From contig JBDGSL010000037.1 of NCBI GenBank assembly GCA_042217555.1, positions 1-11,177 of the forward strand: a DNA stretch of 11,177 nucleotides, given 5' to 3'. Below are positions 50 through 11,083 of the stretch, piece after piece. The position numbers and the translations under genes were made by a program. Position 1 is the first letter of the stretch; every line of letters begins with the position of its first letter. This stretch comes from Candidatus Nanohalobium sp. GTDB taxonomy: Archaea > Nanohalarchaeota > Nanosalinia > Nanosalinales > Nanosalinaceae. The notes under the pieces are model-generated. The model saw only the letters and a list, made by a program, of their open reading frames with translations. It did not search any database and had not been told where the DNA came from.

Positions 50-239
50 TGGGAAAGCCGGGATTCGAACCCGGGACCACTGCGTAACCCACATATTTCT
101 GGATTTAACACGTTTAATCATCGGGCACGAAGACATGAAGTGTCTTCTCAAGCAGCCTTTCCAGAAAAAGGCCGCATCCCTCATCGCTCACAACCAAGTT
201 GTTATGAGCGCAGCACTCTAACCACTGAGCTACTTTCCC
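50..239 (-). tRNA. tRNA with CAT anticodon (non-initiator; Ile2 or elongator Met), 117-nt intron at 37/38 (86..202)
   Basis: Minus strand reads GGGAAAG-TA-GCTCAGTGGTTAGAGT-G-CTGCG-CTCATA|intron|A-CGCAG-TGGTC-CCGGG-TTCGAAT-CCCGG-CTTTCCC-A. BHB motif: CUCA(32-35) pairs with intron UGGG, bulges UA|A and UU|A. No A1:U72 or triple G-C anticodon stem, so not initiator. The G1-G2-G3 acceptor resembles archaeal Ile2; a 37/38 intron is common in elongator Met. CCA is not encoded. Confidence 0.93.
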
Positions 240-240
240 C

Positions 241-423
241 GCTTGTTACGCTAAGCGAACGCAATAGAGCATTCAAGCAAGTTGAATGCACTTCGGGATC
301 AAGAAGTCATCTCCCGAAAGCCATGCTTGCCATGGCTTCTTGCGTGTCACTCCAAAATCGCTGACGCGATTTTGTGCGTTCACAGAAACTCCTTGCGGAG
401 TTTCGCGAAGAGCGTAACCAGTC
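241..423. repeat. Multi-hairpin palindromic element (MITE/REP-like or structured spacer RNA) between the two tRNAs
   Basis: Terminal inverted repeat CTTGTTACGCT (242-252) / AGCGTAACCAG (411-421), 10/11 match. Five internal hairpins at 269-289, 292-318, 318-338, 353-374 and 385-404. Shares sequence blocks with the tRNA-Val intron. Confidence 0.7.
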
Positions 424-2520: not shown

Positions 2521-2585
2521 CGACGCGGCGGCTGCGCATAGGCGACTACAGGGCCTTCTTCGACATACTAGAAGAAGAGGTGAAG
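2520..2585 (+). pseudogene. Internal fragment of a RelE/ParE-family toxin gene
   Basis: The + frame from 2523 reads TRRLRIGDYRAFFDILEEEVK, matching the RelE core motif RLRxGDYR; no recognisable N-terminus. Confidence 0.6.
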
Positions 2586-3065
2586 TGGCCCACTACCTTG
2601 AATCCTGATGGATTCGAGGAAGAGGGGCTTCTGTGCGACCTTATCCCTGAAAAGGAGAGTTTTGTTTTCCACGATACTTTTCTCATTCATACCGTCAACA
2701 CAGAGACTTTACGCTTCGAGGAAAGTTTGAATTAGGGAAACCATTCCCATATACTAACCACAAAAAAGTGGTTTCCTTATTCACTTCTGGTAGCTCCACA
2801 CTACTCTCTACACCGTCCGATTTGACTGGGAAAAAGTCAAATCATTCGGCTTACCTGTTTTTCACCCAATCAGTATTTGTTGGTTGCCGGGTTGCGTTAT
2901 TTGGTTAGGCAGAACAGCCTTACTGCCGTAATACCTATGTTTTAGAGTGTTAGAGTTAAAAAGCTGATTCACCCCTAACCTTAAAAAAGATTCGAGGATA
3001 GGGTCTTCTCAGCAAAAAGATAAAATTTACAACCGTGCTCCCACGCGACAAAGCCTATAGATAAC

Positions 3066-4778: not shown

Positions 4779-4820
4779 TTTTTAAGAACAAAAGTACCTT
4801 ATTTTGTCATGGGTACTTTG
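4779..4820 (+). promoter_or_regulatory. TATA box and inverted-repeat operator overlapping the antitoxin start
   Basis: TTTTTAAG at about 4779-4786, ~25 nt before ATG 4809. Inverted repeat AAAGTACC (4791-4798) / GGTACTTT (4812-4819) spans the start codon. Confidence 0.55.
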
Positions 4821-5039
4821 AAGGTTGAGGGCGACGACGAACTTATCCGAAAGTTCAAACAGAAGGCCAGAGAGGAGTACGGCCAGAAGAGAGGTAGTAT
4901 AAAGAAGGCGACCATGGACCTGATCGAGAAGTGGGTTGAGCAGGATGAGAAAGTGGACTGGGGAGAACTCCGAGGCGCTATCGACAGCGACAAGACTTCA
5001 ACAGAACTTGAAGATGAGGCATGGAAGAAGGTCGATTAG
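4809..5039 (+). CDS. Ribbon-helix-helix antitoxin (VapB-like)
   Basis: MGTLKVEGDDELIRKFK...KRGSIKKATMDLIEKWV; same family pattern as 2056..2283; abuts the PIN gene. Confidence 0.85.
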   Translation: MGTLKVEGDDELIRKFKQKAREEYGQKRGSIKKATMDLIEKWVEQDEKVDWGELRGAIDSDKTSTELEDEAWKKVD

Positions 5040-5441
5040 ATGTACCTGATAGATACCAACGTTTTTCTGGAGCTTTTGCTGGATCAGGAAAAGGCAGACG
5101 AATGCGAGAAGTTACTGGGGAAAATTCTTGAGGGAAGAGTCAACGCGGCCGCAACAGAGTTCACTATACATTCAGTTCAGGGAACGCTGGCTGATAACCC
5201 AGAGACTATCAAAAGGTTCCTTGAAAGCGTTAACTCGACTATAAACATCCAAATTCTGGAGACAGAGATGGAAGAGGAGATAATAATATCGCAGTACTCA
5301 AAGGAGTCTTCACTATGCTTTGACGATGCACTTCAGTACACAGTAGCCCAAAGAGAAAACATCGAAAAGATAATAAGCTACGACACAGACTTCGACAACA
5401 CAGACCTGAAAAGAGTAGAACCCGAAGAACTACTAGGATGA
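5040..5441 (+). CDS. vapC: PIN-domain toxin (VapC family)
   Basis: Motifs YLIDTNVFLE, FDDALQY and IISYDTDFD. Confidence 0.92.
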   Translation: MYLIDTNVFLELLLDQEKADECEKLLGKILEGRVNAAATEFTIHSVQGTLADNPETIKRFLESVNSTINIQILETEMEEEIIISQYSKESSLCFDDALQYTVAQRENIEKIISYDTDFDNTDLKRVEPEELLG

Positions 5442-6079
5442 AAAATCAGCTCAGGCAGATTCTATCACAGGTCGCCGATTTTGAAGACCCGAGGATCAAA
5501 CTGGAGCAGTACATAACACCTCCGGCACTGGCCGCAGATCTGATCTATACAGCGTATATGCAGGGCGATATCGAGGACAAAAAAGTTGTAGATTTAGGGA
5601 CAGGCACCGGGATACTGGCGATCGGAGCGGCAAAAGTTGGTGGAGAAGTCACCGCTGTCGAGAAAGATCAGGATGCTCTGGAGTTAGCGGAGAAAAACGC
5701 TGAGGAGGCCGGAGCCAAGATAAACTTCGTCGAAAAGGATGTAGAAGAGTTCTGTGGAAAGGTCGGAACCGAAGGTTCCAGTGCTTCAAGAAACTCCGGA
5801 GAGCTTCGGCCGTTTGATACAGTTGTCATGAACCCGCCTTTTTCTGTTCACTCGGATACCGGGCTTTCCTTCTGGGAGAGGGCTGTCGAGGTCTCTGATG
5901 CAGTGTATGGGATTTCTCCGCGGGGCGCCCGTGACAGTATAAAAAGTTTGGTCCGAAGTTCAAACCATAAACTTGAGGGTGTACAGGAGTACGATATTGT
6001 CTTGCCTGCGAGTTACGGCTTCCATACTGAGGAAGGCCGTGAAACACCTGTAGACCTGATAATCACGAGGAGAACTTGA
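5438..6079 (+). CDS. METTL5-family N6-adenine RNA methyltransferase, with a ~17-19 aa insertion
   Basis: Motifs LEQYITP, VVDLGTGTGILAIGA, VVMNPPF and YGFH; conserved position upstream of rpoL. Confidence 0.92.
   Translation: MKNQLRQILSQVADFEDPRIKLEQYITPPALAADLIYTAYMQGDIEDKKVVDLGTGTGILAIGAAKVGGEVTAVEKDQDALELAEKNAEEAGAKINFVEKDVEEFCGKVGTEGSSASRNSGELRPFDTVVMNPPFSVHSDTGLSFWERAVEVSDAVYGISPRGARDSIKSLVRSSNHKLEGVQEYDIVLPASYGFHTEEGRETPVDLIITRRT
5758..5815. repeat. In-frame palindromic insertion within the METTL5 gene
   Basis: Outer stem AAAGGTC(G)/(C)GGCCGTTT; inner hairpins GGAACC-GAA-GGTTCC (5765-5779) and GAAACTC-CGGA-GAGCTTC (5790-5807). Confidence 0.65.
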
Positions 6080-6414: not shown

Positions 6415-6672
6415 ATGAGCTACGTGGTTGAGGTCAAGGAGTCCGCCGAAGAGGAGATTCAATCCCTTGAAAACAGCAAGCAGGAGGAGATACTCTCCCA
6501 ACTGGAGAAACTTGAGAATTATCCGGAAAGATACGGCAAGCCTCTGCGCGGCCAGTTGAACGGACTCTGGCAGTTGAGATCAGGAAAGTACAGAATATGG
6601 TATACTGTCGAAGACGAAACTGTAGTAGTTAGAGCCGTGAAACACAAAGAAGATGCCAAAGAACACTACTGA
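6415..6672 (+). CDS. relE: RelE/ParE-family toxin
   Basis: YVVEVKESAEEEI...GKPLRGQLNGLWQLRSGKYRIWYTV...VKHK; own TATA TTTATAA at 6386-6392. Confidence 0.9.
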   Translation: MSYVVEVKESAEEEIQSLENSKQEEILSQLEKLENYPERYGKPLRGQLNGLWQLRSGKYRIWYTVEDETVVVRAVKHKEDAKEHY

Positions 6673-6839
6673 CCGACTTCTTCCTTTAGCTTATCCAGAC
6701 TCTTTGAAGGCTCGTCTTGACTTTCTTTGAGCTGCTCCATGACCTCTTCATCCTCAAGAGTCTCGATTGTAGCCTTCATAGACTCGTACTCTTCCTTTGG
6801 GATATGCACATATCCATCGTCAAAACTTACCTCGGACAT
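6666..6839 (-). CDS. Small acidic putative antitoxin (Phd/YefM-like C-terminal region), convergent with relE
   Basis: MSEVSFDDGYVHIPKEEYESMKATIETLEDEEVMEQLKES resembles the 'EEYESxxETLE-L' segment of RelE-partner antitoxins. TTTAA about 25 nt upstream of ATG 6839. Confidence 0.7.
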   Translation of the reverse strand: MSEVSFDDGYVHIPKEEYESMKATIETLEDEEVMEQLKESQDEPSKSLDKLKEEVGQ

Positions 6840-6919
6840 AAAAAGGCAAGATCCGTCAACAGTTAAATCAGTTTCGATAACACGGCAAGTTATTTCTTGC
6901 AGAAGAATCAATATGACCT

Positions 6920-10263: not shown

Positions 10264-11019
10264 ATGTTCAAAGCGGAAATTGAAGAAACCGGACTGCTCA
10301 AGGACTCGATGAAAACCATATCAGACCTGATCAGCGAAGGAATATTCCAGCTGACTGAAGACGGTATCCAGCTGGTCGCTGCAGACCCTGCCATGGTAGG
10401 ACTAGTCGACTTCACACTGGAAAAAGATGTATTCGAAACATACGAACTTGAAGAGGAACAGAAAGTCGGGTTAAACATCGAAAACTTCTACTCAATCCTC
10501 AGAAGAGCCAACTCAGGTGACAAAATCACGCTGGAAGTAGACGAAGACACCAGCAAGTTCAAAATCACCATGAAAAACTCAAGCACAAGAGACTTCTCAC
10601 TTCCCATCCTGAACCTGTCCGAGGACGACATACCAAGCGTCGGAGACCTCAACCAGTTCACATTTAACGCAGAACTCGACACCAGCGTACTTGAAGGCGC
10701 CATAAAAGACGCCATGGTAGTAAGCGACGCCGTAACCATTACAGCAGATGGAAACAACCTGGAGATCTCAGCAGAAGGAGACCAAAGCGGGGTAGACTTC
10801 ACAGTACAGGACGGAGCGGAAGGGGTCCACGAAATGAACGGAGACGACGCCAAATCAATGTTCAGCCTGGACTACCTATCCAAGATGATCGGGGCCAAAA
10901 AACTATCCGATACAGTCACCGTCAAACTCGGCCAAGACTTCCCGATGAGAATGGAGTTCACACAGCCAGACCAGGCACAGCTAAACTTCGTACTGGCACC
11001 ACGCATCGAAGAAGAATAA
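10264..11019 (+). CDS. pcn: DNA polymerase sliding clamp PCNA
   Basis: Motifs MFKAEI, AADPAMVGLV, SMFSLDYL, LGQDFPM and FVLAPRIEEE; 251 aa. Confidence 0.98.
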   Translation: MFKAEIEETGLLKDSMKTISDLISEGIFQLTEDGIQLVAADPAMVGLVDFTLEKDVFETYELEEEQKVGLNIENFYSILRRANSGDKITLEVDEDTSKFKITMKNSSTRDFSLPILNLSEDDIPSVGDLNQFTFNAELDTSVLEGAIKDAMVVSDAVTITADGNNLEISAEGDQSGVDFTVQDGAEGVHEMNGDDAKSMFSLDYLSKMIGAKKLSDTVTVKLGQDFPMRMEFTQPDQAQLNFVLAPRIEEE

Positions 11020-11083
11020 CTTCTTCGCATGCTCTAAACCAGAAAATCTCCGATTTTCGGATCCACGCATCGAAGAAGAATAA
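10999..11083. repeat. 21-bp perfect direct repeat of the PCNA 3' end flanking a 43-nt palindromic insert
   Basis: CCACGCATCGAAGAAGAATAA occurs at 10999-11019 and 11063-11083. Confidence 0.9.

Follow-up and report, generated by a model that had tools for sequence, protein, structure and literature searches.

The closest described counterparts of the element reported here are the Rickettsia palindromic elements (RPEs), long stem-loops of 105–150 bp that encode a conserved peptide and have terminal inverted repeats of 12 bp (Ogata et al. 2000, 2002, as summarized in PMC2229807 and PMC10969869). An archaeal precedent comes from Methanocaldococcus jannaschii, where palindromic coding repeats are fused in frame into protein-coding genes (Suyama et al. 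2005, as cited in PMC2229807); it concerns a different lineage and is likened here by description, not by sequence. In the account of Haloquadratum walsbyi given in PMC3119063, SMR-A is a highly conserved unit of ~110 bp that makes no target duplication and inserts into IS605 terminal palindromes, and terminal-only PATEs consist of two palindromes (~52 bp), depend on TnpA and likewise leave no target duplication.

The two-hairpin repeat that we describe from Nanohaloarchaea is, like RPEs as summarized in those sources, a dispersed palindrome that lies both between genes and within RNA genes and, in frame, conserved proteins, probably as neutral loops. It is multi-copy in the genome, its in-frame copies are absent from orthologues and it is predicted to occupy a fold-sparing surface loop; it differs in its small unit (~45–50 bp), two short hairpins, freely varying stem letters, several reading frames and DPANN hosts. 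With cores of 41–57 bp and two hairpins in place of a single long stem-loop of 105–150 bp, the repeat works like RPEs but is a different family. SMR-A and PATEs, compared by description only, share with it a tiny, transposase-free format in hypersaline archaea, and one copy in this genome has a similar IS605-end placement, whereas the nanohaloarchaeal repeat has a 4-nt duplication signal and TnpA occurs in just 2 of 49 family genomes. This signal, and the fact that the repeat is not the end of a Y1 element, set it apart from PATE/REP elements mobilized by Y1 HUH enzymes. With MITEs, as outlined in PMC10969869 and PMC2229807, it has in common a short, probably non-autonomous unit, terminal inverted bases (CGAA/TTCG) and, at family level, a putative flanking duplication signal, but its inverted ends span only 4–5 bp, its interior covaries instead of being copied faithfully and no cognate transposase was found among the enzyme families searched (listed below). 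A literature search, with most subscription journals outside its reach, returned no description of the repeat in Nanohaloarchaea; the accessible text of PMC10266531 and of bioRxiv 10.64898/2026.06.17.729505 does not contain it, and by eye the two-hairpin architecture is not seen in the five nanohaloarchaeal ncRNAs of the PMC10266531 supplement.

The window, meaning the whole 11,177-nt stretch of DNA analysed, is one contig (C31) of a 1.31-Mb genome (G000), and its proteins have nanohaloarchaeal relatives. The gene of interest encodes a METTL5-family enzyme by its class I fold, motif I, NPPF and EQY motifs, with human METTL5 and Pyrococcus PH1948 as the closest solved structures (sequence E 1e-28; fold search TM about 0.8). 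The fold is common to the METTL5/PH1948 structures (6H2U, 9OHL, 1WY7), whereas the window enzyme has an extra 17-residue loop on the side where the human protein binds TRMT112. With the insert excluded, comparison with the orthologue of a congener (G002) gives dN 0.093, dS 0.96 and dN/dS 0.097, a ratio that averages over pre-insertion time too and that indicates purifying selection on METTL5 outside the insert. The features are:

5438..6079, plus strand: METTL5-family (16S rRNA m6A) methyltransferase gene, 213 aa, motif I (DLGTGTG) and NPPF intact
5762..5812, plus strand: in-frame insert of 51 bp (17 codons, V109–P125), net gain set by orthologue alignment
5765..5779: hairpin 1, GGAACC-GAA-GGTTCC, a perfect 6-bp stem (6/6 pairs)
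5780..5789: linker of 10 nt, its final A preceding hairpin 2, an arrangement as in the repeat family
5790..5808: hairpin 2, GAAACTC-CGGA-GAGCTTC (5790–5807) plus a terminal G, 6/7 pairs
5831..5842, plus strand: catalytic NPPF motif (N132–F135), at the end of strand β4 far from the insert

The original prediction held that an in-frame palindromic insert of Gly/Ser-rich peptide interrupts METTL5. Alignment of orthologues, which it had proposed for fixing the boundaries, bears this out with a net gain of 5762–5812, two hairpins and seven Gly or Ser among the 17 residues; the peptide KVGTEGSSASRNSGELRP is encoded at 5759–5812 within the ORF. The 51 bp correspond to a 43-bp two-hairpin core plus 8 bp, the exact ends being uncertain by a few bases. 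All 29 orthologue loci in relatives lack the insert, including three congeners at 80–89% identity, as do all 20 of a further set of orthologues drawn mostly from other families, and 118 of the 119 other homologues listed (the best 120 of 908 examined). A protein search limited to the insert region matched only itself. In the same study, a second sample yielded a contig that covers 5300–5955 with four substitutions (one at 5717) and crosses the insert gap-free, so an error of one assembly is unlikely. The insert is also beyond chance, since a lineage-specific indel coincides here with a relaxed two-hairpin pattern seen in only 1 in 3,000 random coding windows.

The single A·C mismatch in hairpin 2 is decay. 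The RNA minimum-energy fold includes a four-pair closing stem, which agrees with the predicted closed two-hairpin structure as far as its parts go; the closing stem is no family trait (33 of 101 copies at ≤ −8 kcal/mol, versus 23.8 on average and at most 36 in shuffles, no clear enrichment), and the fold does not rise above shuffled sequence, with no excess stability as RNA (z 0.03 on the plus and −1.59 on the minus strand) or as DNA (z −1.11 and −0.75). The 8-mer arm GAAACTCC at 5790 is indeed identical to 385–392, in a hairpin of the same repeat family; alone, the 8-mer has 83 occurrences genome-wide. Searching the genome with the insert by BLASTN turned up no clear copy (best E 0.067), and the family emerged only through motif and structure searches.

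The repeat unit reads GAA-stem-TTC, linker, AGAA-stem-TTCG. A motif for the hairpin-2 arm has 19 genome matches, against 0–2 in each of ten shuffles, and a generic two-hairpin descriptor using the GAA/TTC-type bases gives 68 strand hits, or 46 loci, against none in three shuffles; applied to the 0.97 Mb of G002 that was retrieved and to G003, the same descriptor yields 19 and 14 loci. The descriptor was composed after the METTL5 copy had been seen, and a covariance model was therefore built from 26 other copies, with both METTL5 copies (the second is described below) left out. This model spans both at full length, scoring 22.2 bits for the window copy and 23.2 bits for the other (locus L031). 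One perfect hairpin alone can reach 20–26 bits, so a 22-bit score lends moderate support only. Stems covary strongly, with 94% of cells paired and 51 double-sided changes against 14 shuffled, in training copies picked for pairing. Elements are unusually stop-poor (3.9 open frames of six versus 2.2 shuffled).

The model has matches in 40 of the 49 family genomes, in 10 of 20 further genomes from the same order and, weakly, in 2 of 12 outgroups, with no convincing match among those 12 archaea. Four genomes (G018, G019, G022 and G035; 92–99% complete) have no model matches, though family relatives have dozens, with G009, G025 and G062 among the repeat-rich genomes. The insert derives, as the RPE-like reading proposed, from a dispersed palindromic family with members in spacers, in the introns of tRNAs, in a 23S rRNA gene and in further proteins. 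An Rfam scan of the window and four element-bearing loci returned tRNAs only and no family model for the repeat, and viral contigs gave no full two-hairpin consensus; of their 30 single-hairpin hits, none was convincing. A loosely defined pattern, run over 61 genomes, was discounted as too unspecific against its control. Further units in the window are:

351..406: well-preserved copy between two tRNA genes, holding the 385–392 arm (fold z −3.74) and included among the training copies
11006..11060: copy at the end of the PCNA gene, between two 21-nt direct repeats, a family match
127..174, minus strand: family-like unit inside a tRNA-Met intron, weak at 13.4 bits

The spacer at 246–418 is flanked by an 8-bp inverted repeat. 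Both adjoining tRNA genes, tRNA-Met(CAU) at 50–239 and tRNA-Val(GAC) at 426–585, each on the minus strand, carry introns (117–119 and 86 nt) packed with hairpin modules, and were found by Rfam and missed by ARAGORN. At 10999–11083 the last 21 nt of the PCNA gene recur 64 nt downstream, around the two-hairpin unit, whose hairpin 1 is formed by the gene end and its inverted copy; a comparable layout is seen at a tRNA end (C3:58814).

Comparison of G000 with G002 shows many loci that hold the repeat in only one of the two genomes, with a difference of about 45–60 or about 100 bp; the sites lie at start codons, in the introns and flanks of tRNAs, in an rRNA gene and in coding sequence. The repeat behaves like a mobile unit, and is likely mobile, since congeners differ in its presence by about one or two units at a time. 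On the core+8 diagonal, 16 of 101 copies are flanked by an exact 4-nt direct repeat versus 1.7 shuffled (104 copies less three duplicates; the duplication offsets were chosen after the data were seen), and 6 of 52 versus 0.9 away from start codons. At the METTL5 copy such a duplication is not preserved, with 1–2 of 4 matches by eye, and several other filled/empty differences also deviate from core+8.

A scan of other genes, as had been proposed, found similar inserts. Comparison of the proteomes of three congeners gives 73 gaps of 10–45 residues, 47 of them well anchored, and seven fit the relaxed pattern; two of these were dropped as start-codon copies, not coding inserts. In the genome, 5 of 46 loci lie inside orthologue-supported coding sequence, all in frame: METTL5, an AsnB–Dph6 fusion, a UvrD-like helicase, Hel308 and endonuclease III. 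In so gene-dense a genome, this small share inside genes suggests that coding copies are strongly filtered. Apparent frameshifted coding copies were rejected, as they read as antisense shadow frames across gene junctions. In two congeners Hel308 has in-frame inserts that resemble the element, each at a site of its own (L124 of G003; G000 C39:11506), and more decayed candidate inserts are seen in G000 Elp3, GluRS and Pus10.

The same METTL5 site is filled in a second lineage. Protein P0068 (locus L031), 56% identical to the window enzyme, has 17 extra residues at the same codon, orientation and frame. The original prediction was set against a loop that orthologues share at protein level without DNA palindromes; here orthologues lack the loop, and this sole homologue with it has both DNA hairpins and different, compensated stem-1 letters. 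The two inserts share 13 identical bases across the linker end and arm 2, and L031 measures 51 bp where core+8 would predict 54. In trees made without the inserts, each insert-bearing gene nests among insert-free orthologues, and grouping the two in a single clade is rejected (AU p 5e-46). Among 104 copies, the two in METTL5 match each other best, reciprocally, and no other copy has at least 12 bases in common with either; given this mutual match, a shared origin fits at least as well as separate gains. One family genome with an insert-length match (G069), perhaps holding the same gene as L031, was counted once. No third METTL5 case came from the insert-region protein search or from a metagenome scan for METTL5 alleles with a hairpin before the β4 codons, whose four hits were the L031 allele again and three unrelated, element-free proteins. 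The AsnB–Dph6 fusion likewise has an in-frame repeat in two genera, where junction and orientation coincide (L198:1503–1548, G001; L200:1503–1548, G017); the junction is empty in G000 and G002, and G003 may hold a collapsed remnant. G000 AsnB–Dph6 has a different copy elsewhere in the protein (C1:51757). One start codon is filled in G000, G014, G028 and G033 and empty in G002 and G003, and there copies from different genera differ in sequence and orientation.

This recurrence could also reflect one insertion, after which only the patch holding the element passed between nanohaloarchaea that occur together, or the same subfamily re-inserting itself at one target in a homing-like way. The agreement of the METTL5 copies in codon, orientation, frame and 13 bases, their standing as mutual best matches among 104, and the common site, orientation and similar element at AsnB–Dph6 in two genera all fit such a history, which we nevertheless consider unlikely: flank identity between the two METTL5 genes is not raised, no recombination tract is seen and the genes are just 56% identical, 2.8% of family pairs have at least 13 bases in common anyway, and the start-codon copies across genera differ in both sequence and orientation. 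Far less probable is an ancient insertion in the family ancestor, followed by many precise losses through short-duplication recombination and retained in two lineages. Repeat-mediated clean deletion is described for Haloquadratum elements in PMC3119063, and the possible AsnB–Dph6 remnant in G003 and the somewhat decayed state of both METTL5 copies fit it too; against this, the tree needs two changes for two gains versus many losses, the empty alleles have near-uniform loop length with no remnant, and hairpins would hardly be durable that long in a neutral coding loop.

That the insert is an archaeal bulge-helix-bulge mRNA intron, cut out by the tRNA splicing endonuclease to leave an insert-free protein, is highly improbable. 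The repeat family does occur in tRNA introns, and the L031 copy has a strict bulge-helix-bulge hit exactly at its 51-nt borders, but by our own reading that hit requires five G·U pairs, and it disrupts hairpin 2. The window copy has neither a strict nor a one-sided 51-nt motif, while both window tRNA introns were detected as controls; the motif occurs in 17 of 104 family copies against 17.3 shuffled, and splicing does not require that all five coding copies in the genome be in frame. Ordinary low-complexity loop expansion with hairpins arising by chance can be given the least credence of all. Folding energy at the level of shuffles and the 40 of 47 well-anchored congener gaps (10–45 aa) that do not fit the relaxed pattern would be expected of it, whereas the rarity of that pattern in coding windows, an insert length equal to core+8 and a second lineage having both hairpins with compensated stems speak against it; that rarity, those hairpins and the full-length covariance-model match already largely refute it. 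We favour the reading that the 17 residues are the predicted translation of a partly decayed ~50-bp two-hairpin repeat, which probably inserted itself, in frame, in a METTL5 surface loop and is probably carried there as a near-neutral passenger. New protein sequence would be created in the literal sense that had been proposed, but there is no sign of peptide function and a tolerated passenger is more likely.

AlphaFold2 models the insert block as a low-confidence loop (pLDDT 48 versus about 95 for the core) just before β4 (residues 126–131), in keeping with the expected disordered surface loop. The insert had been placed next to the catalytic NPPF motif, which holds in sequence and not in the fold: since the insert precedes β4 and NPPF (132–135) follows it, the two lie at opposite ends of the strand and, from the rise of six residues, should be roughly 20 Å apart. 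In human METTL5, residues R115, M116, F120 and D121 contact TRMT112 according to PMC6735865; these residues align with the insert loop and with F126–D127 at its end. That source also records that Haloferax METTL5 binds Trm112 and that METTL5 is non-essential in human cells, and PMC6144793 notes that Trm112 is missing from some other archaeal orders too. Searches with the Pfam Trm112 profile, whose 40 positions may miss a divergent homologue, found it in none of the 49 family genomes and in none of 69 order genomes over cut-off; 5 of 12 outgroups and 7 of 14 controls were positive. Three points make the loop likely to be tolerant: its place on the Trm112-binding face of the fold, the negative Trm112 search in this archaeal family and the dispensability of the enzyme in human cells. 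Residues 67–108 are the least conserved part of the alignment (0.63 versus 0.69–0.83). Positions corresponding to human V54 and L76 are polar in 54 of 54 sequences each; polarity of the partner face as a sign of partner loss was dropped, as a Trm112-bearing outgroup is also polar at the L76 and V78 positions.

As a mechanism, we propose that the repeat is a non-autonomous mobile element moved in trans. The moving enzyme would read the paired GAA/TTC hairpin bases, not the stem letters, and leave about 4 bp duplicated; our best guess, a conjecture, is an enzyme acting in trans, by cut-and-paste or by copying, that a virus or plasmid would bring in for a time. Coding copies would persist only if in frame and in tolerant loops, and the second METTL5 lineage would most likely have gained its own copy at the same permissive, possibly preferred, site. 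None of the candidate enzymes searched tracks the repeat: Y1 TnpA, in the two genomes mentioned above, does not, nor do reverse transcriptase (7 of 50 genomes), DDE_Tnp_1 (7 of 50) or TnpB (11 of 50 over cut-off), and the single-contig genome G009 has 45 model matches without any of the four. Of seven Y1 loci, one has a repeat copy, which lies inside the element's end hairpin and does not form that end. At this tnpA–tnpB (IS605-type) element on G000 C11, a two-hairpin copy sits within the presumed left-end hairpin loop (L210:1330–1430) and, by eye, a related unit lies inside the right-end palindrome (L210:2900–2995); the ends are those we take to be such by likeness to haloarchaeal IS605 end patterns. 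A reverse transcriptase gene (G000 C75:52121–53277) lies about 500 nt from another repeat copy.

A broader and more speculative proposal, which we put forward as doubtful, sees in the repeat a mobile unit of Nanohaloarchaea, encoded by structure and lacking a transposase, that re-targets the same nucleotides in unrelated lineages (METTL5, AsnB–Dph6, start codons, hairpin loops). Its mover would be an enzyme of the host or of a virus with no role in mobilizing DNA known so far, and loss of the Trm112 hub would have opened methyltransferase partner faces as landing pads for the repeated birth of new peptide loops. What is new is the recurrence of the insert at one site and the proposed explanation by a vacant partner face. 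Protein-coding palindromes thereby reach DPANN archaea, beyond Rickettsia, Wolbachia and Methanocaldococcus, with a much smaller, structure-conserved unit. The same METTL5 loop filled in two lineages is a natural replicate that makes the question of neutrality or usefulness testable in a small enzyme, and makes testable too whether landing sites reflect target preference or tolerance after partner-protein loss. Same-site inserts can also mislead indel-based phylogeny in Nanohaloarchaea.

Several other observations were made along the way. Three small antitoxin–toxin-like pairs lie in the window (2056–2316/1671–2096, 4809–5441 and 6415–6840), two with PIN-type partners and one with a RelE-like partner; Pfam confirms PIN only for 5040–5441. 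A ~450-bp non-coding stretch at 2580–3025 has 72–87% identical copies on C1, C12 and C45, those on C1 and C12 with extra hairpin units. In G002, a copy at L081:1240–1296 lies within an apparent 23S rRNA gene, identified by eye, and is absent from G000 (52 bp difference). The ribosomal-protein operon of G000 (C12:91786–105521) has many repeat copies on start codons, with a Shine–Dalgarno-like GAGGTG in the last arm and the ATG duplicated.
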